A model generated the notes under the pieces. That model saw only the letters and a program-made list of their open reading frames with translations, had not been told where the DNA came from and did no database searches. Both the position numbers and the translations under genes were made by a program. Shown here in pieces: positions 13,412 to 34,027 of a DNA stretch of 41,922 nucleotides. How positions within the stretch are numbered: the stretch's first letter is position 1; each line of letters begins with the position of its first letter. The stretch comes from a virus, in the IMG/VR virus record IMGVR_UViG_3300029543_000007, one strand, 5' to 3'.

Positions 13412-14206
13412 ATGAGAATCGCATTGACCGTAGGACACAGTTTACTTAAAAATGGATCATATACATCAGCAAGTGGAGAAGATTGCGGTGGAGTAAACGA
13501 GTATAAGTACAATAAAAAGCTGATGAAAAAGGTAAAAGAATATCTGGAGAGTGACGGACACAGTGTTGATCTGTATATCTGCCCAGAGAAGGTATTTACC
13601 GCTGCGTCACAGGAAAAATCATGGAAACTGACACGTTTAAATGCAAAGAATTATGATCTCGTCGTAGAAGGTCATTTGAATTGCTACAATGGAAAGGCTC
13701 ATGGAACAGAGGTACTTTATGTGTCTGATGGCGGTAAGAAATACGCAAAGAGAGTACAGAAGAAACTCGTATCCGCTGGATTAACTGATCGTGATGTTCA
13801 GAAGAGAACGAACCTGTATATGCTGAATGCCACAAAGGCAACAACAATCATGACAGAGAGTTTTTTCTGTGATTCTAAGTCCGATTATAAAATCGGTAAG
13901 TACGTAAATAAGATCGCTAAGTTGATCGCAGAGGGAATCTGCAATAAAAAGCTGGGAACAGCTACCAAGGCTAAGGAAGCTGTAAAAACAGCCGTGAAGA
14001 AAGTTACCAAAACAACTGTGTATGCTAAGGTTGTCACAAAATCCGATCCACTTATGATCAGAAACAGTGCTAACAGATCATCTAAGATCATTGGTAAGAT
14101 TCCGAAAGGATCAAAAGCAGAAGTAATTAAAAAAGGCAGCACGTGGACGAAAGTTAAGTACAAGAGTGTAATAGGGTATTCCGCTACAAGATACCTTAAA
14201 TTTTAA
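13412..14206 (+). CDS. Endolysin: N-acetylmuramoyl-L-alanine amidase (Amidase_3-like) with a C-terminal SH3-like wall-binding domain
   Basis: MRIALTVGHS... / EGHLN / ESFFCDS motifs. C-terminus GSKAEVIKKGSTWTKVKYKSVIGYSATRYL. Confidence 0.8.
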   Translation: MRIALTVGHSLLKNGSYTSASGEDCGGVNEYKYNKKLMKKVKEYLESDGHSVDLYICPEKVFTAASQEKSWKLTRLNAKNYDLVVEGHLNCYNGKAHGTEVLYVSDGGKKYAKRVQKKLVSAGLTDRDVQKRTNLYMLNATKATTIMTESFFCDSKSDYKIGKYVNKIAKLIAEGICNKKLGTATKAKEAVKTAVKKVTKTTVYAKVVTKSDPLMIRNSANRSSKIIGKIPKGSKAEVIKKGSTWTKVKYKSVIGYSATRYLKF

Positions 14207-14550: not shown

Positions 14551-15576
14551 TTATTTCAACAAAAGAATTGTCTCTCTTAATTGTTTTACTGTTTTATGAT
14601 TATAAACTCTGTTTCCGATATCTTTAGATTTATGCCCCATCAGCATATCAATGCATTTTCTATTGCCGCCTGCATTATCCAAAAATGTTTCAAAAGTATG
14701 CCTTGCCTCATGAGGCGTTTTCTTTCTCTTTGTTATATAGGCAATAACAACCTTCCACTCTTCATAAAAATCCCATTTTTTAAACTTGGAACCTTCATCA
14801 TTTTCTAAAAAATATTCATTACTTTTCTCTAACCGTTTTTTTACAAACGGCATGATACGAGGATGAATTGGAACAATTCTGTTTTTTCCAGAATCAGATT
14901 TACTTCCACCTTTAAAGTATCGTTCTTCTAGGTTTACTTGATCACATGTCATATCTAATAATTCCATTAATCGGAATCCTGTATAAATATAGATTAAAAC
15001 AATATCAACATTTTTTTGATCAGATATTTTCCATAGAGCTTCAACTTCTTTTTCGGTAAATGGTGCGCGTTTTGACTCTTCCTGCTTGGCACTTACAGAT
15101 GTTAATTGTGAATACATTTTATCTATGATATCTAATTCAAACGCGAAACTGTCTAAATGTCCCCATAGAACTTTGATATGAGCTTGCGTGGCATAACTGC
15201 GTCCACAGTTATCTATAGTTTCTTGCATTTGATAAGCTTTTATTTGTCTGTATTTCATTCCGTAGAGTTTTTGACAATGTTTATAAGCTGATTTGAGTGA
15301 GCTTAAACGAGAGGTTCCAAGTTTGGGACCTTTTATTTCAAGCCATCTCGTATATAAATCTGCAAGCGTCACTCGGTTACGATCAATGTTCCACGGATTG
15401 TCGTTGTACTTGGCCAAAATGATGTTTGCTTCTTCACGAGTAGCAGCATAGTCCACTGGGACCTGCCTTCCGTGTCCATCTTCATCATATGTAGTAACTT
15501 TGATCACATAAGGGCGTGAACGATTACCTTTTAATTTTGTCACACTGCCGTAGCCGTTTGGGTTTCTTCTTGCCAT
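14551..15576 (-). CDS. int: Tyrosine integrase (AP2-like N-terminal DNA-binding domain)
   Basis: 341 aa. Catalytic pattern: TGFRLMEL (R), PHEARHT (HxxR), LMGHKS (H), RVYNH (Y). Adjacent to a non-coding AT-rich region. Confidence 0.9.
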   Translation of the reverse strand: MARRNPNGYGSVTKLKGNRSRPYVIKVTTYDEDGHGRQVPVDYAATREEANIILAKYNDNPWNIDRNRVTLADLYTRWLEIKGPKLGTSRLSSLKSAYKHCQKLYGMKYRQIKAYQMQETIDNCGRSYATQAHIKVLWGHLDSFAFELDIIDKMYSQLTSVSAKQEESKRAPFTEKEVEALWKISDQKNVDIVLIYIYTGFRLMELLDMTCDQVNLEERYFKGGSKSDSGKNRIVPIHPRIMPFVKKRLEKSNEYFLENDEGSKFKKWDFYEEWKVVIAYITKRKKTPHEARHTFETFLDNAGGNRKCIDMLMGHKSKDIGNRVYNHKTVKQLRETILLLK

Positions 15577-16120: not shown

Positions 16121-17032
16121 TTATTTTAAACCGTATTGAGCCTTTCCGATAACTTTTCCATCTTGGAAAGTTATATTTGCATTTGCACCGACAGATCCAT
16201 TTCCTTTCCAAGAATATATCTCAGTTAATTCTCGGCCTATATATGAAGAAACTTCAAGCTCTCCAGGACCACCGATTAAAAACTTAACTTGGCTATACGT
16301 CATATTATAAGTAATTCTGTTATATTCAGCTCTTGTGATGGTTTTTTCTTTTCCTTTAGGACCAAACCAATGTGCATATAATGTATGTTTTTTTAAATTT
16401 TTAATTAAAGTATTTCTGGTTATTTTTTTTCCACCGGATTTTTTGGTATACCAACCTTTGAATTTATAATTTTTTCGCTTCGGGGTAGGAAGGGTTCCGT
16501 ATTTATTACCTGCCTGGACTGATTTGACTTTTTTTGAAACTTTTCCTTTATTTGCATTGAATGATATTTTATATTTAGGACCAATTACATTAATTGTCTT
16601 ATTAATTGTTCCGATTTCATATCCGGTTTCTTCCCAAGAATTATCGATGTATGTATATACATAAAAGTAACTTTTTAATATATATTTTCCTGGATTTTTA
16701 ATTTTTAAAGTCCTAGAAGTAGTTTTGGTATAATTTCCGTTTGTTTCATCAATAAAGTATGTATCAACCAAATTCTTGTCAGAAACTGAATTAATATATA
16801 AATCATATGCTCCTGGAATTATTTTTGTTTCACCCTGTATTCCACCAGTAGAACTTAGCCTATCACCTATAAACAATATGTTGATTTTTTGATTTGGCTT
16901 TACAGATTGAGGCAAAATTACCTGACAGTTAGAAAAACTAGCTGTTGGAGAATCAGCAAAAACAAGAGTTACAGAAGTCAAGCTTAACAAAATACATGTA
17001 ATAATAATGATTTTTGCCTTTTTCATATACAT
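16121..17032 (-). CDS. Secreted protein with a Listeria-Bacteroides-type repeat and a C-terminal DUF3862/BLIP-like domain (lysogen-expressed moron)
   Basis: Signal peptide MKKAKIIIITCILLSLTSVTLVFA. FNANKGKV...YKFKGWYTKKSGGKKI...LYAHW repeat. Last gene of the repressor operon. Confidence 0.6.
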   Translation of the reverse strand: MYMKKAKIIIITCILLSLTSVTLVFADSPTASFSNCQVILPQSVKPNQKINILFIGDRLSSTGGIQGETKIIPGAYDLYINSVSDKNLVDTYFIDETNGNYTKTTSRTLKIKNPGKYILKSYFYVYTYIDNSWEETGYEIGTINKTINVIGPKYKISFNANKGKVSKKVKSVQAGNKYGTLPTPKRKNYKFKGWYTKKSGGKKITRNTLIKNLKKHTLYAHWFGPKGKEKTITRAEYNRITYNMTYSQVKFLIGGPGELEVSSYIGRELTEIYSWKGNGSVGANANITFQDGKVIGKAQYGLK

Positions 17033-17041
17033 ATTTCCTCC

Positions 17042-17464
17042 TTATTTTAATCTTAATTTAATTAACTCCTCATTATATCCAAGTGCACGTGCAATTTGAT
17101 CTGTAGTAAATTCTTGAAATTCAAGAAAAACTTCATCGTCAATTAGAAGCTCAGTTGCAAACTTATCTGCTTCGATTTCCATTTTACTTACCAGAAGTCC
17201 AGTTCGTTTCCTTAAAAATGGAGTATTAGCATCAGGATGCATAATCGCATGCCCTAACTCATGTGCACATGTAAATAGTTGATCGTGATCAGAAAGATCA
17301 TGATTTATATGTATTTGCTTCATACGAAGCTGTTTATTGTAGTATCCACTAATGGATCCCAATGGTTCAAATATAACCTTTATCCCTAAATACTTAGCAA
17401 TATCAAAAGGATCATTCGTACCATATTTTTTCTTTAATGTGTTTGTTTTTTTACGAATATCCAA
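17042..17464 (-). CDS. immA: ImmA/IrrE-family zinc metalloprotease (anti-repressor protease)
   Basis: HELGHAIMH motif; 140 aa; directly downstream of the XRE repressor. Confidence 0.85.
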   Translation of the reverse strand: MDIRKKTNTLKKKYGTNDPFDIAKYLGIKVIFEPLGSISGYYNKQLRMKQIHINHDLSDHDQLFTCAHELGHAIMHPDANTPFLRKRTGLLVSKMEIEADKFATELLIDDEVFLEFQEFTTDQIARALGYNEELIKLRLK

Positions 17465-17476
17465 TGAATCACTCCT

Positions 17477-17917
17477 TTATTTTCTGTATTTCTTTGGTGT
17501 GAACTTTTGCTTAGCATTTATTTTTGCAATGGTTATACTATTCTGGAGACTAGCTTTTAATAATTCTCTTGTTTCATCATCTAAAGGTTCTCCAGAGAAC
17601 ATCAGTCCATCTTGATCGGATTCTAACTGATCAAGGGTTTGTTCTAATCGTTTTGCGATATCTTTTTCATCTTTCTTAGTTAGCTCAATGGCTTGATCGG
17701 ATTTTTCTTCTATTAAATCAGATTTTCCAATTCCAAAATAATCAGCGAGAGCTTGTACGCTTCCCATTCTAGGAATGGATTGTCCCGTACACCAAGTATT
17801 AAATGTTTGTGGAATAACTCCAATAGCTTTAGCCACCTCTTTTTGGCTTTTTCCTGATTTCTCTAAATAGAAAGATAGATTTTTAGAGAATATTTTCTTT
17901 TGCTTTTCATCTGACAT
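17477..17917 (-). CDS. XRE-family HTH repressor (CI/ImmR-like)
   Basis: N-terminal HTH: KSQKEVAKAIGVIPQTFNTWCTG. Divergent from the cro-like gene. Confidence 0.85.
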   Translation of the reverse strand: MSDEKQKKIFSKNLSFYLEKSGKSQKEVAKAIGVIPQTFNTWCTGQSIPRMGSVQALADYFGIGKSDLIEEKSDQAIELTKKDEKDIAKRLEQTLDQLESDQDGLMFSGEPLDDETRELLKASLQNSITIAKINAKQKFTPKKYRK

Positions 17918-28442: not shown

Positions 28443-28661
28443 ATGGCATATAGAGATTGTCCGTGCCTAAATTGTAAAGATAGATCACACGGATCAAAGA
28501 GAGTTGCTTGTCAGACAGGATGTGAGAAGTATCTTTCTTGGAAGGCAAAGGAACAGGAATTAAGAAGAAGAGAGAAAGAATCACGGCCTTATTACTCAAA
28601 TGCAAGAAAAGCGATCATAAGAAACCGCCAGATGAAAAGAAAGAGCGGTAGGCAGATATGA
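28443..28661 (+). CDS. Small Cys-rich basic protein
   Basis: CPCLNC...CQTGC followed by an R/K-rich tail. Confidence 0.5.
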   Translation: MAYRDCPCLNCKDRSHGSKRVACQTGCEKYLSWKAKEQELRRREKESRPYYSNARKAIIRNRQMKRKSGRQI

Positions 28662-29212
28662 TTGATCCATGCAAAGCCTGTGCAGAGATAATCTGCATGG
28701 GCATTTGTGCCGATCGGGTACTATACAAACAAGAGTACCAGGAGATGACAGACCGGATAAGGCAGCAGATAATTAATCGTAACAGGAGGCAAGACATGGA
28801 TAAGAAAAAACTAAGACAGTATCGATCTCTGAAGAGGGAGCAGAAGATGCTGGAAGACAAAATGGAGAAACTGAATGAAAGAGCAGAGAGGATTCCGACG
28901 GTTGCTGGAACAGTAAAAGGATCCATGAACACGTTTCCCTATATCGAAACGCACATGAGAGTTGTGATGTCAGAGCCGAAACAAACAGATGTGATCTATC
29001 GGCAGATGATGATCAACGGAAAGAGACAGGAACAGGTGGATGAACTTCTGACAGAGATTGAAGAGTTTATCAGTTTGATTCCTGATAGCAATGCAAGACA
29101 GATCTTTGAACTCATTTATCTAAATGGTAAGACACAACAGGAAGTTGGAGAACAATTGGGGTATACAAAAGGTAGAATTTCTCAAATAGTTAGTGAAAAT
29201 CTAAAAGATTAA
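28658..29212 (+). CDS. Late transcriptional activator (RinA/ArpU/sigma-70 region-4-like)
   Basis: C-terminal HTH: KTQQEVGEQLGYTKGRISQIVSE. Last regulator before the packaging module. Confidence 0.55.
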   Translation: MIDPCKACAEIICMGICADRVLYKQEYQEMTDRIRQQIINRNRRQDMDKKKLRQYRSLKREQKMLEDKMEKLNERAERIPTVAGTVKGSMNTFPYIETHMRVVMSEPKQTDVIYRQMMINGKRQEQVDELLTEIEEFISLIPDSNARQIFELIYLNGKTQQEVGEQLGYTKGRISQIVSENLKD

Positions 29213-29299
29213 ACAAATTAAACAAAAAAGTGTGTTATAGTTATACTTGAGGAAATTGGATAGAATCCTTTTTACTCGCCCCGTATAATTTTTTTTGAG

Positions 29300-29326
29300 C
29301 ATCGCAGAAATGCGGTGTTCTTTTTG
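29300..29326 (+). terminator. Rho-independent terminator
   Basis: CATCGCA-gaaa-TGCGGTG followed by TTCTTTTTG. Confidence 0.55.
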
Positions 29327-29336
29327 TGTATTTTTA

Positions 29337-29365
29337 TTGAATATCTTGTAAAATGTGCATATAAT
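29337..29365 (+). promoter_or_regulatory. Near-consensus promoter, TTGAAT-17-TATAAT
   Basis: -35 at 29337-29342; -10 at 29360-29365. Confidence 0.65.
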
Positions 29366-29369
29366 AAAA

Positions 29370-29387
29370 ACAGAACATATGTTCTGT
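29370..29387. promoter_or_regulatory. LexA-type (Cheo/DinR) box: perfect 18-bp palindrome ACAGAACATATGTTCTGT
   Basis: Contains GAAC-N4-GTTC; starts 5 nt after the -10 hexamer. Confidence 0.55.
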
Positions 29388-29488
29388 ACCACGGCGCGTT
29401 TAATTTTTTTTATCGAATTATGTAGTATAAGATGCTAAATAGTGCTAAAATGTAAAAAAAATGATGATTGCACGGGGGACTATGATTT

Positions 29489-30373
29489 ATGAAAAGGACT
29501 TTATACTATTATTATTTATCGGGCGAAAAGAAACCAGCTAAAAAATATAAAATGCCAGAAAATTTAAAGAATGATATTAAGGATTCGGCAGAGTTGATAT
29601 TAGAAAAACCTAAAAATGATAGGAAGAAGGATGTAAAATCAAAAAAGAAGATAATATATTTGGCAGATATAAAAAATTTGGAGGATGAAAATACCATAAT
29701 ATTAGAGTTTATTTCTGCAAAATATGCACGAATTAGAACGGTTATTGATACAAATACTTTAAAAGAACAAGAATTAAAGAAAAAAGGAAGAGATGATGGA
29801 GATGAAGAGAGCGTATCAATTGGTATTAAATTTTTAGAAAATAACGAAGCGATATGTGTGTACGAATACAATAGGGATGCAGCAGGGTTTCAGCTACTTA
29901 TTCAGTATTTGCAAGAAGAGATTCTTAAAATACATAAGGATAAGAATGACGGTATTGGATATAAATTAAAAACGGAACAAAAAGTTTCTAAAGATTTCTT
30001 GGCAGCATTAAAAAAGACAGAAAAAATTACAGCTGTAAAAATAACTGTTGACAGCGAAGATGCCACAGCATCAGAAATAAAAGAAATTTCTGGAAGATCA
30101 GACTTATCCGAAGATGTGGAGATTATTTACAAGCCTTCTGGTAAAAATATTTTAACAAATACTGTAAAGAAGTTTTTTGAAATTTATAACGATTCACAAA
30201 GAAAGATTAAAAAAGTATATGTGGAATCTAAGGGCGAAAATGGGAATCCGCTTCATTTTGACACGGAGGAAATGAGAGAAAAAGAAATATTGGATGTTGA
30301 AGAAACTTATTCTGGAGAGGTTGATAAGGGAGACTTATATGATCAGATGATAAGGTGTCTATCAAATTTTTAG
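29489..30373 (+). CDS. Uncharacterised 294-aa soluble protein (moron gene 1)
   Basis: AT-rich ORF, K/E-rich, no recognisable motif. Confidence 0.7.
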   Translation: MKRTLYYYYLSGEKKPAKKYKMPENLKNDIKDSAELILEKPKNDRKKDVKSKKKIIYLADIKNLEDENTIILEFISAKYARIRTVIDTNTLKEQELKKKGRDDGDEESVSIGIKFLENNEAICVYEYNRDAAGFQLLIQYLQEEILKIHKDKNDGIGYKLKTEQKVSKDFLAALKKTEKITAVKITVDSEDATASEIKEISGRSDLSEDVEIIYKPSGKNILTNTVKKFFEIYNDSQRKIKKVYVESKGENGNPLHFDTEEMREKEILDVEETYSGEVDKGDLYDQMIRCLSNF

Positions 30374-30383
30374 GAGTGATAAT

Positions 30384-30941
30384 ATGGGTGATAACAAGCG
30401 AAAGAATATGAGTGAAATATTTGACCCAATAAAAGATTTTTTTACAATTAGAAAAGCAAAGGAAAAGCTTTTATTTTATGTAGTTCCAGTATTGTTGGGG
30501 ATGCTATCAATGGTCTTGTTTATATTTATTCACGGCAATGATGCTTTTAATTTAAAAAGCTTTACAAATGAGTTTGTTGATCAATTAATTACTATGTTGA
30601 CATTATTCGTAAGCTTTACGATGGCCTATTTGTCAATAATAGTTTCAAGCTGTAGCAAAAATATTGATAATCTTAAGTCTACTAAATCAGAAAAATATTA
30701 TCTTAAAAGGAAAAAGGATTGTACGTTATATCAAGTACTGGTATCCGAAATAACATATAATTTGTTGATTGAGATATTATTCTTATTAGTCACAATAGTA
30801 GAGAAATTTATACTTTGTGTATCAAATCCTATAGCGTGTAAAATAATGTTATCTGTTGATATTACACTTTTTGTACATGTGCTATTCATAATGATGATTA
30901 TTGTGAAAGATATTTATTTTTCATTTTGGAAATCAGAATAA
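30384..30941 (+). CDS. Uncharacterised 185-aa membrane protein with four predicted TM segments (moron gene 2)
   Basis: Hydrophobic segments at about aa 29-49, 68-88, 116-139 and 150-175. Confidence 0.7.
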   Translation: MGDNKRKNMSEIFDPIKDFFTIRKAKEKLLFYVVPVLLGMLSMVLFIFIHGNDAFNLKSFTNEFVDQLITMLTLFVSFTMAYLSIIVSSCSKNIDNLKSTKSEKYYLKRKKDCTLYQVLVSEITYNLLIEILFLLVTIVEKFILCVSNPIACKIMLSVDITLFVHVLFIMMIIVKDIYFSFWKSE

Positions 30942-30957
30942 TAAATGTATAATCAGA

Positions 30958-30989
30958 ACTCGGGTGATCTTCGGACCCCGAGTCTTTTT
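30958..30989 (+). terminator. Rho-independent terminator closing the moron
   Basis: ACTCGGG-12 nt-CCCGAGT followed by CTTTTTA. Confidence 0.7.
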
Positions 30990-31018: not shown

Positions 31019-31468
31019 ATGAAACAGTACATTGGAACAAAAATCGTTAAAGCAGAACCGATGACAAGAGGTGATTATAACAATTATCGAGGATGGCAGA
31101 TTCCTGCAGATGAAGATCCGACGGATGAAGGATACTTGATGGAATATGAGAATGGACATGAGCAGTGGTTGCCAAAAGAAATGTTCGAAGCTGATTATAT
31201 CGAATATGACAAAAACAAATTACCGGCAACAGCTGTTGGCATGATAAGTACAGATTATAAAGAACGTTTCAAGGCAGAATATGCTCAGTTAGTAATTCGT
31301 TATGAAGGATTAAAGGGAATGCTTAAAAAGTGGGATGATGGAACACTTGAGTTTGAACCAACTTGCCCACGTAGCATTTACAACATGCAGATCAAAGCAA
31401 TGTCTGAGTATATTGCAGTGCTTGAAGCAAGGGCAGCAATTGAAAATGTAGATTTGATGTCTGAGTAA
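31019..31468 (+). CDS. Conserved phage hypothetical protein
   Basis: N-terminus MKQYIGTKIVKAEPMT...DEGYLMEYENGHEQWLPKEMFE is a pattern recurring in phage proteins. Confidence 0.55.
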   Translation: MKQYIGTKIVKAEPMTRGDYNNYRGWQIPADEDPTDEGYLMEYENGHEQWLPKEMFEADYIEYDKNKLPATAVGMISTDYKERFKAEYAQLVIRYEGLKGMLKKWDDGTLEFEPTCPRSIYNMQIKAMSEYIAVLEARAAIENVDLMSE

Positions 31469-31794: not shown

Positions 31795-31868
31795 GGACCT
31801 CTAGCTCAGCAGGTCAGAGCAGTCGGCTCATAACCGATCGGTCCAGGGTTCGAGTCCCCGGAGGTCCA
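31795..31868 (+). tRNA. tRNA with anticodon CAT (elongator Met or lysidine-modified Ile2 type)
   Basis: Folded by hand. Acceptor GGACCTC/GAGGTCC, D arm GCTC/GAGC, anticodon arm GTCGG-CTCATAA-CCGAT, T loop TTCGAGT. One A-C mismatch in the T stem; no encoded CCA. Confidence 0.8.
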
Positions 31869-31898: not shown

Positions 31899-32777
31899 TT
31901 GAATGAAGAAAAAAACTACATATTGGCAGAATCCGATTACGTGGCCGGAATGAAGTATAAAGACATTGCTGCCAAGTATGGAGTCTCGATAAATACTGTG
32001 AAATCGTGGAAGAAACGATACGCATGGTCGAGGAACAAAAAGACAGGATGCATCCAAAAGGGGTGCACACAAAATAAAAAGGGTGCACACAAAAAAGAAG
32101 CCGTTGCAGAGGATGTAAGTCAAGTTGTAATTAACGATGAACTTACCGATCAGCAGCAGCTTTTTTGTTTGTATCAATCTAGGATGTTTAATTATACGAA
32201 AGCATACATGAAAGCTTATCCAGGATGTACTTATGCATCTGCTGCCGTATTAGGAAGCAGGCTTATGAAGAATCCAGTGATCAGAAAAGAGATTGAACAG
32301 CTAAAGCAGAATCATATGAACAGGGAACTGCTAAAACAGGAAGATATCTTTCAAAAGTACATGGATATTGCGTTTGCAGATGTGACAGATTATGTATCGT
32401 TTGGGCGAGAAAATATTCAAGTCATGGGCGCTTTTGGTCCAGTAATGGTAGAAAACAAAGAAACTGGAGAGAAGGAAGTTCTCGAAAAAGAAGTCAATAC
32501 TGTGAAATTCAAACAATCTGAAGATGTTGATGGAACGCTGATCACGGAAGTGAAGCAAGGAAAAGACGGAGCGAGCATTAAGCTGGTTGATAAGATGAAA
32601 GCTTTGCAATGGCTTGCAGACCATATGGATATTGCTACAGCTGAACAGAAAGCTAAGATCGAACAGATTAGAGCTAAGACAGCGATCATGTCCGGAACAT
32701 CCGAAGAAGAGACAGAAGACGATGGATTCATCGAAGCCTTAAAAGGTGAGGTGGCAGATGTATGGGAAGAAGAATAA
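31899..32777 (+). CDS. terS: Terminase small subunit
   Basis: HTH MKYKDIAAKYGVSINTVKSWKKRYAW plus a Terminase_2-like LTDQQQLFCLYQ...; TTG start after GAAGGTGG. Confidence 0.8.
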   Translation: MNEEKNYILAESDYVAGMKYKDIAAKYGVSINTVKSWKKRYAWSRNKKTGCIQKGCTQNKKGAHKKEAVAEDVSQVVINDELTDQQQLFCLYQSRMFNYTKAYMKAYPGCTYASAAVLGSRLMKNPVIRKEIEQLKQNHMNRELLKQEDIFQKYMDIAFADVTDYVSFGRENIQVMGAFGPVMVENKETGEKEVLEKEVNTVKFKQSEDVDGTLITEVKQGKDGASIKLVDKMKALQWLADHMDIATAEQKAKIEQIRAKTAIMSGTSEEETEDDGFIEALKGEVADVWEEE

Positions 32778-34027
32778 AGAAAGCTGTCTTTAAGTTTCGG
32801 CCGTTCTCTAAGAAGCAGAAAAAGATACTTACCTGGTGGCTACCAAATTCGCCAGTGCATGATCAAGATGGAATCATAGCAGATGGAGCAATCCGATCGG
32901 GAAAAACTATTTCTATGTGCTTATCTTTTGCAATGTGGGCAATGGAAACCTTCAACGGACAGAACTTTGGTATGTGTGGGAAAACGATCGGTTCTTTCCG
33001 GAGAAACGTACTCTTTTGGTTAAAGCTTATGCTTAAGAGTCGAGGGTATCACGTTGAAGATCATAGAGCTGATAACTTAGTTGTTATCCGGAGAGGTGGC
33101 AAAGAAAATTATTTTTACATCTTTGGCGGTAAGGATGAGCGATCCCAGGATTTGATACAGGGTATCACACTTGCAGGAGTCTTTTTTGATGAAGTTGCAT
33201 TGATGCCTGAATCTTTTGTTAATCAGGCAACAGGACGTTGTTCTGTTGATGGATCAAAATATTGGTTCAACTGTAACCCAGATGGGCCGTATCACTGGTT
33301 TAAAACTAACTGGATTGATCGTGCAGATGAAAAGAAACTTGTCTATCTACACTTTACGATGGACGACAATTTAAGCTTATCTGAGCGAATTAAAGCACGA
33401 TATCGAGCAATGTATACCGGAGTGTTTTATAAGCGTTATATCTTAGGTCTGTGGGCCGTAGCTGAGGGAATTATTTACGACATGTTTAATATAGAAAAGC
33501 ATGTCACATCAGAAAAGCAGTCAACAACCGGCAGTAAATACGTCAGTGTCGATTATGGTACACAGAATGCGACAGTATATCTTTTATGGGAGAAGAACCA
33601 GAAAGGTCAGTGTGTTGCTACGAAAGAATATTACTATTCTGGCCGAGATGAGACTACGCAGAAGACAGATGGAGAATATGCGGATGACATGGAAGAGTTC
33701 CTGAAAGGAATCAATGTTGAATCAATCATTGTCGATCCGGCAGCCGCATCCTTTATCGCAGAACTTAAGAAACGAGGATTTAAGGTTAAGAAAGCAAAGA
33801 ATGATGTACTTGATGGTATTCGATTTGTCGGAAATCTGTTAAATCTAAGTGTATTACAGTTCTCTGAATGTTGTAAAGAAACAATCAAAGAGTTCGGTTC
33901 TTATATCTGGGATGACAAGGCATTGGAACGTGGAGAAGATAAACCAGTGAAGCAGCATGATCATTGTATGGATGCAGTGAGATATTTTGCTTACACGATC
34001 GTAAGACGTGAACGAAAATGGAGTTGA
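32762..34027 (+). CDS. terL: Terminase large subunit (PBSX-type)
   Basis: Walker A GAIRSGKT, Walker B VFFDEV, C-terminal nuclease HDHCMDAVRY. Confidence 0.9.
   Translation: MGRRIKKAVFKFRPFSKKQKKILTWWLPNSPVHDQDGIIADGAIRSGKTISMCLSFAMWAMETFNGQNFGMCGKTIGSFRRNVLFWLKLMLKSRGYHVEDHRADNLVVIRRGGKENYFYIFGGKDERSQDLIQGITLAGVFFDEVALMPESFVNQATGRCSVDGSKYWFNCNPDGPYHWFKTNWIDRADEKKLVYLHFTMDDNLSLSERIKARYRAMYTGVFYKRYILGLWAVAEGIIYDMFNIEKHVTSEKQSTTGSKYVSVDYGTQNATVYLLWEKNQKGQCVATKEYYYSGRDETTQKTDGEYADDMEEFLKGINVESIIVDPAAASFIAELKKRGFKVKKAKNDVLDGIRFVGNLLNLSVLQFSECCKETIKEFGSYIWDDKALERGEDKPVKQHDHCMDAVRYFAYTIVRRERKWS

Follow-up and report, generated by a model that had tools for sequence, protein, structure and literature searches.

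What purpose is served by a small, AT-rich pair of genes inserted between the late regulator and the packaging genes of a human-gut phage? The question is raised by positions 29337-30989 of IMG/VR virus record IMGVR_UViG_3300029543_000007, the whole 41,922-nucleotide stretch of which was analysed here (the window). The unit, referred to below as the cassette, consists of gene A (29489-30373, + strand), encoding a soluble, RexA-like protein of 294 amino acids (aa), and gene B (30384-30941, + strand), encoding a 185-aa protein with four transmembrane (TM) helices. The two genes are 10 nt apart and carry their own Shine-Dalgarno sequences, GGGGGA at 29474-29479 for A and AGGAG just before 30384 for B. 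The cassette is probably a RexAB-type, two-gene abortive-infection or phage-exclusion module placed under SOS control, and the evidence for this reading starts with the fold and remote homology of protein A.

Comparison of protein A with the hidden Markov models (HMMs) of Pfam, NCBIfam and PADLOC, the RexA model included, gave no meaningful match, NCBIfam returning only a chance-level match to VapB (E 0.26), while a match to phrog_4672 (2e-14) led to a family of unknown function. A first-pass annotation of this DNA had reported no recognisable motif in either protein, which holds for such simple scans but not for structural and profile-profile comparison, by which A can be identified. A model built with AlphaFold2 from a 10-sequence alignment (predicted local distance difference test score, pLDDT, 78.6; predicted template modelling score, pTM, 0.73) was compared with the PDB using Foldseek, and lambda RexA (8twq_A) was both the top match (E 3.4e-7, probability 1.00) and the sole one at E <= 1e-3. 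Among the viral models of BFVD, uncharacterised phage proteins matched best, followed by RdgC, which is described as a known structural relative of RexA in PMC11077077. RexA outranked RdgC, no chain of which occurred among the best 50 PDB matches. The model thus supports a two-domain RexA/RdgC fold for A.

Profile comparison points the same way. An exhaustive profile search with A collected 388 cluster representatives at E <= 1e-3, nearly all of 285-320 aa, and a 115-sequence alignment of this family was compared by HHalign with a RexA profile made from 24 bona fide PF15969 sequences. The two aligned over 266 co-linear columns (94.8%, E 5.1e-8), residues 12-312 of the A family against 2-274 of RexA, hence at near full length. 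The deep 115-sequence alignment was needed for this match; a 10-sequence profile, or a single RexA sequence, gave a weak signal in the same register. When single family members were scanned against Pfam, RexA was the commonest family, yet with just three of the 115, and DUF6731 came next. In PADLOC, the RexA model was matched weakly by five of the 115 (best 9.3e-7) and PDC-M53A (model PDLC04696) by 26 (best E 5.6e-13), with further members matching four other PDC-M53A models. Protein A itself had no match at E <= 1 to PF15969, PADLOC RexA, PDC-M53 or DUF6731, nor did B match the last two, and no member of the B family matched a PDC-M53 model. On the profile and model evidence, A is placed as a remote member of a RexA-like superfamily, outside Pfam PF15969 by that family's own criteria, and the same comparisons unite RexA, DUF6731 and PDC-M53A-like proteins in one superfamily of 388 cluster representatives. 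By analogy with its relatives, A is predicted to be the sensor or activator of the system and a likely DNA-binding dimer.

The second protein was described in the first-pass annotation as a four-TM protein, and both hydropathy and an AlphaFold2 model (pLDDT 82.6) bear this out. In the model, two short N-terminal amphipathic helices precede long hydrophobic helices at residues 25-48, 57-88, 115-144 and 149-182, and the central loop contains a beta-hairpin. Lysine and arginine residues number seven at the N-terminus and eight in the central loop (89-116), against one and none in the other loops, so that the positive-inside rule gives an N-in/C-in topology. Polar residues are conserved inside the helices (Q67, S77, E122, E130 and H165). 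Protein B matches phrog_4613, of unknown function, at 5e-15; a HMMER profile search against PDB sequences found nothing, and Foldseek comparison of the model with BFVD gave no significant match, the best one being the partner protein from the same uncultured virus that supplied the best match of A. Homology of B to RexB was considered and rejected after HHalign comparisons with a single sequence and a small profile, in local and global mode, and an apparent correspondence of Glu and His residues in TM3 and TM4 of the two proteins failed in global alignment. By analogy of topology and gene context, B is predicted to be a RexB-like inner-membrane effector.

The two genes travel together. In every relative with a long enough contig, a homologous TM partner of 173-190 aa follows A within a few bases; the pair was seen in Anaerostipes phage AC844P1, in Hungatella-type prophages and HK97-type phages, as well as in IMG/VR contigs, two genomes (a genome scan with the shallow alignment of A returned two loci) and very distant members at 20-28% identity. 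The partners of these very distant A homologues still align with B over its full length, and the partnership is kept down to about 20% identity in both phages and chromosomes. One 174-aa database protein, P0066, joins the last 85-90 residues of an A homologue, in the same reading frame, to a B homologue that begins at about residue 62. It probably arose by deletion and is not a natural fusion, but it confirms that the A and B genes are neighbours in its lineage.

Taken broadly, a RexAB-type system has a soluble partner that is remotely homologous or structurally related to lambda RexA and, immediately downstream in the same operon, a four-TM gene; both features are found here. The likeness to lambda RexA/RexB (PF15969/PF15968) covers the order of a two-gene operon, with a soluble protein of about 280-295 aa first and a small four-TM protein directly behind it, the RexA fold and remote full-length profile homology of A, the N-in/C-in topology and basic central cytoplasmic loop of B, and the prophage-borne location. 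The cassette differs from lambda in that its proteins have no direct HMM match to either Pfam family, B is longer than RexB (185 against 144 aa) and shares no detectable homology with it, a promoter with its own LexA box stands in place of PRM/PLIT, and the host is a Gram-positive anaerobe.

Similar combinations are recorded in three articles (PMC12894663, PMC6426596 and PMC11077077), and the comparison with them is by description only. RexABpp (PP_5643/PP_5644) of Pseudomonas putida prophage P1 is a validated defence system, whose RexBpp damages the membrane upon activation and had no homologue in HHpred searches (PMC12894663). Gp30/gp31 of mycobacteriophage Sbash are an experimentally validated defence pair (PMC6426596), gp31 having the same N-in/C-in topology as B; related actinophage Rex-like pairs have been described (PMC6426596, PMC11077077) and a broader family of such pairs was already anticipated (PMC6426596). 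With the cassette, RexABpp and gp30/gp31 share remote RexA similarity of the soluble protein, as seen by HHpred or structure, and a four-TM partner without similarity to RexB; they differ from it in phylum and in lying in or near the immunity region.

Other defence systems fit less well. The first-pass annotation had drawn an analogy with Kiwa (KwaA/KwaB), which likewise combines a four-TM protein with a soluble protein of about 300 aa. This resemblance is one of composition alone: Kiwa has its genes in the opposite order, neither protein matched KwaA, KwaB or DUF4868 in PADLOC or Pfam, and the 24 PADLOC families to which one or more of the 115 A-family members had a match include no Kiwa model. 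The analogy is accordingly abandoned, since order and fold point to lambda RexA/RexB. Readings as CBASS or a Pycsar-like system were also rejected, with no PADLOC match and with a RexA-like fold in A.

How the cassette is expressed bears directly on what it may do. The distal promoter P1 (29337-29365, + strand) has the hexamers TTGAAT and TATAAT separated by a 17-nt spacer, with 10 of 12 positions matching the consensus. The near-consensus promoter of the first-pass annotation is therefore present, but its hexamers alone are unremarkable in AT-rich DNA, where P1-like sites are no commoner than chance (14 observed against 14.2 expected). P1 is credible because it is conserved: an equivalent sigma-A-type promoter is kept at the same relative position in relatives whose flanks cannot otherwise be aligned. 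Immediately downstream lies the perfect 18-bp palindrome ACAGAACATATGTTCTGT (29370-29387, no strand), correctly noted before as an operator-like palindrome but not recognised for what its sequence suggests. Within it, abutting the -10 element of P1 and covering approximately +1 to +13, is the Gram-positive LexA (Cheo/DinR) box AGAACATATGTTCT (29372-29385), the only occurrence of GAAC-N4-GTTC in the 41.9-kb window. As GAAC-N4-GTTC/T is the LexA operator of Bacillus and Clostridium (PMC4234289), the palindrome is, by its sequence, a Gram-positive LexA box and a predicted operator for host LexA in the SOS response. A 'terminator-like' site on the minus strand (29387-29370) was rejected, being the palindrome itself.

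Conservation of the box among diverged promoters argues strongly for its relevance. Of about ten diverged lineages of the promoter, six carry the box there, with identity of 0.62-0.94 in the box region and random-level identity (0.2-0.4) in the promoter flanks. The phage DNA fetched for comparison (1.81 Mb) contains 32 boxes, a background of 0.0027 per 150 nt, which makes six of about ten independent promoter types far more than chance would give (binomial p ~7e-14). Two arrangements occur: just 3' of the -10 element, as in the window, AC844P1 and the Hungatella type, or within the 17-nt spacer of a near-consensus promoter, as in relatives L020 (TTGACA-TAAGAACAAATGTTCTA-TATAAT), L007, L015, L016, L018 and L025. 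An operator of the GAAC-N4-GTTC/T type overlapping a promoter and conserved among orthologous promoters, as expected of an SOS regulon member, is thus found here. The box accompanies two types of Rex-like cassette, A/B and a DUF6731+TM pair described below, and it is absent from empty insertion sites, from TIR and YfbU cargo and from chromosomal copies linked to restriction-modification (R-M) genes. It was not copied from the phage's own operators, given that the immunity module is of the ImmR/ImmA type. A second element, the extended -10-like TGcTAAAAT at 29443-29451 (+ strand), about 40 nt before the start codon, is tentatively regarded as a proximal promoter, P2; in most relatives, an element of the TGnTATAAT type is clearer and precedes the ribosome-binding site by 25-50 nt.

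The cassette is also insulated on both sides. On the 5' side, an intrinsic terminator at 29297-29326 (+ strand), with a hairpin at 29297-29320 (10-bp stem, 5 GC pairs) and a T-run, folds at -15.2 kcal/mol (z -4.78; none of 200 shuffles was equally stable) and closes the upstream unit of the sigma-70 region 4 late regulator. On the 3' side, the transcription unit ends at an intrinsic terminator at 30958-30989 (+ strand), in which a GC-rich stem (about 30959-30983) is followed by the TCTTTTTAT T-run; its folding (-13.6 kcal/mol, z -1.76) is weaker than that of the 5' terminator by z. No Rfam RNA family matched the cassette. Its GC content is 0.290 against 0.375 across the window, making it the lowest-GC 1.65-kb stretch (rank 0.4%), and GC at third codon positions is 0.25-0.26 in its genes against 0.33-0.44 in neighbouring ones. 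The gene coordinates, tight spacing, flanking terminators and visibly AT-rich composition reported in the first-pass annotation are consequently borne out by open reading frames, hairpin folding and base counts, as is its placement of the unit between a late activator (a sigma-70 region 4 gene upstream) and the packaging genes (terS and terL downstream).

A small multi-TM protein in an insulated, AT-rich, SOS-controlled unit might also be a toxin. Under this explanation, the module would act in addiction, stress lysis or superinfection exclusion and would sense no infection; B would either poison the membrane under LexA control or block injection, and A would regulate B or serve as its antitoxin. 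SOS-induced small membrane toxins exist and provide a parallel, and the conserved polar residues within the helices of B (Q67, E122, E130 and H165) would suit such a protein. We nevertheless consider this improbable: the fold of A is that of RexA/RdgC and not one known from antitoxins, its one antitoxin match (VapB) is at chance level, a 300-aa protein that co-evolves 1:1 with B fits the sensor of a sensor-effector pair, and the validated relatives, as described in PMC12894663 and PMC6426596, act as abortive-infection systems.

Whether the cassette belongs to the core of the phage or to its cargo was examined in relatives fetched through the two flanking genes, 39 loci with both flanks being kept, some of them the same contig twice. 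In most of these loci, the sigma-70 region 4 gene is 86-96% identical and the downstream PF21825 gene 93-100% identical to those of the window. The A/B pair occupies only four of the 39; in most, the slot is empty, with a gap of either 217 nt or 626-630 nt, the longer gaps going with a different C-terminal part of the sigma-like gene. Elsewhere the slot holds other cargo. Sister phages L053, L055, L131 and L132 carry in it (e.g. L053:5706-7181) a 303-aa DUF6731 protein (E 7e-57) together with a 183-aa multi-TM protein, behind the same promoter and with an identical GAACATATGTTC box. This DUF6731 protein aligns with the A family at full length (HHalign, E 1e-4), so that DUF6731 seems to form a further branch of the RexA-like superfamily, and the pair is in effect an allelic Rex-like cassette. 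Three further cargoes, none with an upstream LexA box, are a 259-aa TIR_2-domain protein (L198:4123-4902), a YfbU-domain protein (L048:4120-4653) and a 143-aa protein with an N-terminal TM segment (L133:980-1411).

With the slot of close relatives empty or otherwise filled, the cassette is accessory, and the horizontally acquired cassette postulated in the first-pass annotation is supported by this pattern. Mosaic prophages whose head modules are unrelated, one with an SPP1-type and one with a Mu-type portal, contain the identical A/B cassette as well. Protein A is 100% identical to the NCBI entry 'hypothetical protein [Anaerostipes hadrus]', found on 554 contigs, the longest of 3.17 Mb, and identical copies occur in 896 blocks of an assembly index, including integrated prophages on contigs of up to 2.3 Mb. 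The cassette is hence self-contained, horizontally exchanged accessory cargo of a temperate Anaerostipes hadrus siphophage. Among the outcomes that the first-pass annotation had named as contrary to its proposal were membership in a structural or lysis protein family and a core status of the pair in related phages; neither is the case.

The associations of the family point to defence. Distant A/B pairs in chromosomes directly adjoin the N6_N4_Mtase and ResIII genes of type III R-M. PDC-M53 belongs to a set of 145 untested candidates that the authors of PADLOC drew from genes embedded in defence systems, namely BREX, DISARM and type I R-M (bioRxiv 10.1101/2024.01.29.577857); a literature search found no paper mentioning PDC-M53 or DUF6731. 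The RexA homology of A, the PDC-M53A and RexA matches within its family, the type III R-M neighbours and the TIR protein in the same slot make a role in defence or abortive infection, as first proposed for this unit, the reading best supported by sequence comparison and structure modelling.

The same observations bear on two further explanations. The first holds that the module mainly serves the prophage's own switch from lysogeny to lytic growth: upon LexA cleavage, the RexA-like protein would make lytic commitment more stable by binding to DNA or to the immunity repressor, with B as modulator, and the exclusion of other phages would be secondary or absent. The LexA box kept on P1 across lineages predicts peak expression at induction; the ImmR/ImmA-type repressor is not a self-cleaving S24 protein, which makes an additional SOS input conceivable; and lambda RexA binds CI and helps the lytic transition, modulated by RexB (bioRxiv 10.1101/2021.04.19.439022, Thomason et al.). 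Most close relatives, however, have the same regulatory and packaging genes and no cassette, so it is not needed for induction, homologous pairs stand outside prophages beside R-M genes and lack a LexA box, and a slot that can hold a TIR protein fits defence cargo. We therefore regard a switch function as unlikely. The second explanation, an ordinary function in DNA metabolism or morphogenesis with A as an RdgC-like recombination modulator attached to a membrane anchor, is very improbable indeed. It would account for RdgC among the structural matches and for a cassette that immediately precedes terS and terL in phages of several types, but RexA ranks above RdgC, most sister phages have identical flanks and lack the pair, chromosomal loci outside phages contain it, and a private promoter, terminators and aberrant GC content are at odds with it. 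It is the variable presence of the pair and its R-M-linked non-phage homologues that argue most strongly against both explanations.

A RexAB-type exclusion module under SOS control would be expected to work as follows. Transcription would start from the strong sigma-A-type promoter P1, the start site of which is covered by the predicted host LexA operator; expression is accordingly predicted to be low in undamaged lysogens and de-repressed in the SOS response, while the weaker P2 may provide a basal level. As is expected from lambda RexA, RexApp and the actinophage homologues, A would form a DNA-binding dimer and sense a foreign-phage cue, for example a phage protein or an intermediate of replication or recombination. 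Activated A would then turn B into a membrane-permeabilising or depolarising effector, probably through the conserved, positively charged central cytoplasmic loop of B, and the resulting membrane damage would stop the growth of the infected cell and abort the infection. We infer DNA binding by A, activation of B by A, membrane damage, the defence phenotype and LexA binding from these comparisons.

Several observations weigh against this reading and explain why it is offered as probable. The global template modelling score of the A model against 8TWQ is just 0.31, with a root-mean-square deviation of 19 A (Foldseek), which may be explained by the hinge that joins the two domains; according to PMC11077077, the RexA crystal is closed, and AlphaFold and RdgC-based models are open. 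The shallow 10-sequence profile of A aligns to RexA weakly, a HMMER profile search of A against PDB sequences misses RexA, and neither protein of the window matches any Pfam, NCBIfam or PADLOC model. On the membrane side, HHalign of B against RexB, as a single sequence or a 4-sequence profile, reached 2.4-5.4%, which is not significant, and no B-family member matches any PADLOC model; a scan of 28 B-family members likewise gave no match to Pfam RexB (PF15968). The location also differs from that in lambda, as the cassette, at 29.3-31.0 kb, is not beside the immunity repressor but about 11.5 kb from the ImmR/ImmA genes, which lie at 17042-17917 on the minus strand and are not co-transcribed with it. 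SOS-repressed expression is unusual for the protection of a lysogen and could indicate a role in the phage's own induction. Finally, the function of the module in the A/B clade is a prediction, each functional statement being inferred by analogy.

These considerations lead to a more specific, tentative and rather doubtful proposal. Rex-type modules of Lachnospiraceae phages may form a swappable allelic series, comprising A/B and DUF6731+TM, that is wired to the host SOS response and gated by damage or induction, instead of guarding the lysogen constitutively. Such modules might be armed only when DNA damage by an incoming phage, or prophage induction, cleaves LexA; alternatively, they might enforce lytic commitment, as proposed for lambda RexA.

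The surroundings of the cassette show further features. The upstream late regulator, with its sigma-70 region 4 domain, was delimited at 28658-29212 as the longest open reading frame (184 aa); in relatives, gene callers start it at an internal Met, giving 138 aa. Many relatives keep just the first 44 codons of the long frame, the remainder being replaced, and for this reason the N-terminal part of about 45 codons may form a small gene of its own, or the regulator may be built of modules. Downstream of the cassette, the order is PF21825 gene, DUF6275 gene, tRNA-Met, terS and terL. The PF21825 gene (31019-31468, + strand) has its domain at residues 79-140 (E 3.2e-19), preceded by an extra N-terminal region of about 78 aa. 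PF21825 is the 'Sequestin' family, which sponges the Thoeris signal 3'cADPR (bioRxiv 10.1101/2025.07.12.664507), and the predicted defence cassette thus directly adjoins a predicted anti-defence gene. In mosaic relatives L204 and L205, a Tad2-like (PF11195) gene replaces the PF21825 gene. The tRNA-Met gene (31795-31868, + strand; anticodon CAT), supported by ARAGORN and by Rfam at 62 bits, lies between the DUF6275 gene and terS (31899-32777), with terL (32762-34027) following.

The remainder of the genome is that of a temperate phage. The immunity region is of the ImmR/ImmA type, with an HTH_3 repressor (17477-17917, - strand) and an ImmA-type Peptidase_M78 metalloprotease (17042-17464, - strand). 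Next to the integrase (14551-15576), a gene at 16121-17032 (- strand) has a product of 303 aa that includes a Listeria-Bacteroides repeat domain and may be a surface protein of lysogenic conversion. The endolysin (13412-14206) combines Amidase_3 and SH3 domains. Genes are ordered as tail, endolysin, integrase, immunity, replication, late regulator, terminase and head, by which the window is circularly permuted relative to the integrated prophage, as expected for an assembled phage genome. A near-identical IMG/VR relative, IMGVR_UViG_3300045988_102871, measures 42,259 bp.

RexAB is the oldest known phage-exclusion system, and its trigger and mechanism are still unclear. To our knowledge, validated Rex-type relatives are few so far and come from Proteobacteria and Actinobacteria; the locus described here extends the family to abundant human-gut Firmicutes. 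The kind of system was already known, and a distant branch of it is listed as an untested PADLOC candidate. What is new is a Rex-like clade of Firmicutes gut phages that current HMMs miss, the union by profile comparison of the RexA, DUF6731 and PDC-M53A-like groups, annotated separately before, the placement in a late-regulator/terminase cargo hotspot beside anti-defence genes, and a conserved predicted SOS operator on a Rex-like cassette. The available text of PMC12894663, PMC6426596 and PMC11077077 does not mention LexA or SOS control of Rex-type operons. That current defence-finder HMMs overlook the cassette entirely illustrates a blind spot in the annotation of gut-phage defence, and the conserved LexA operator yields a concrete regulatory hypothesis that could explain when Rex-like systems are deployed. 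If true, an SOS-gated allelic series would be the first direct link between LexA and Rex, and SOS gating would offer a handle on what Rex proteins sense and why prophages keep them.

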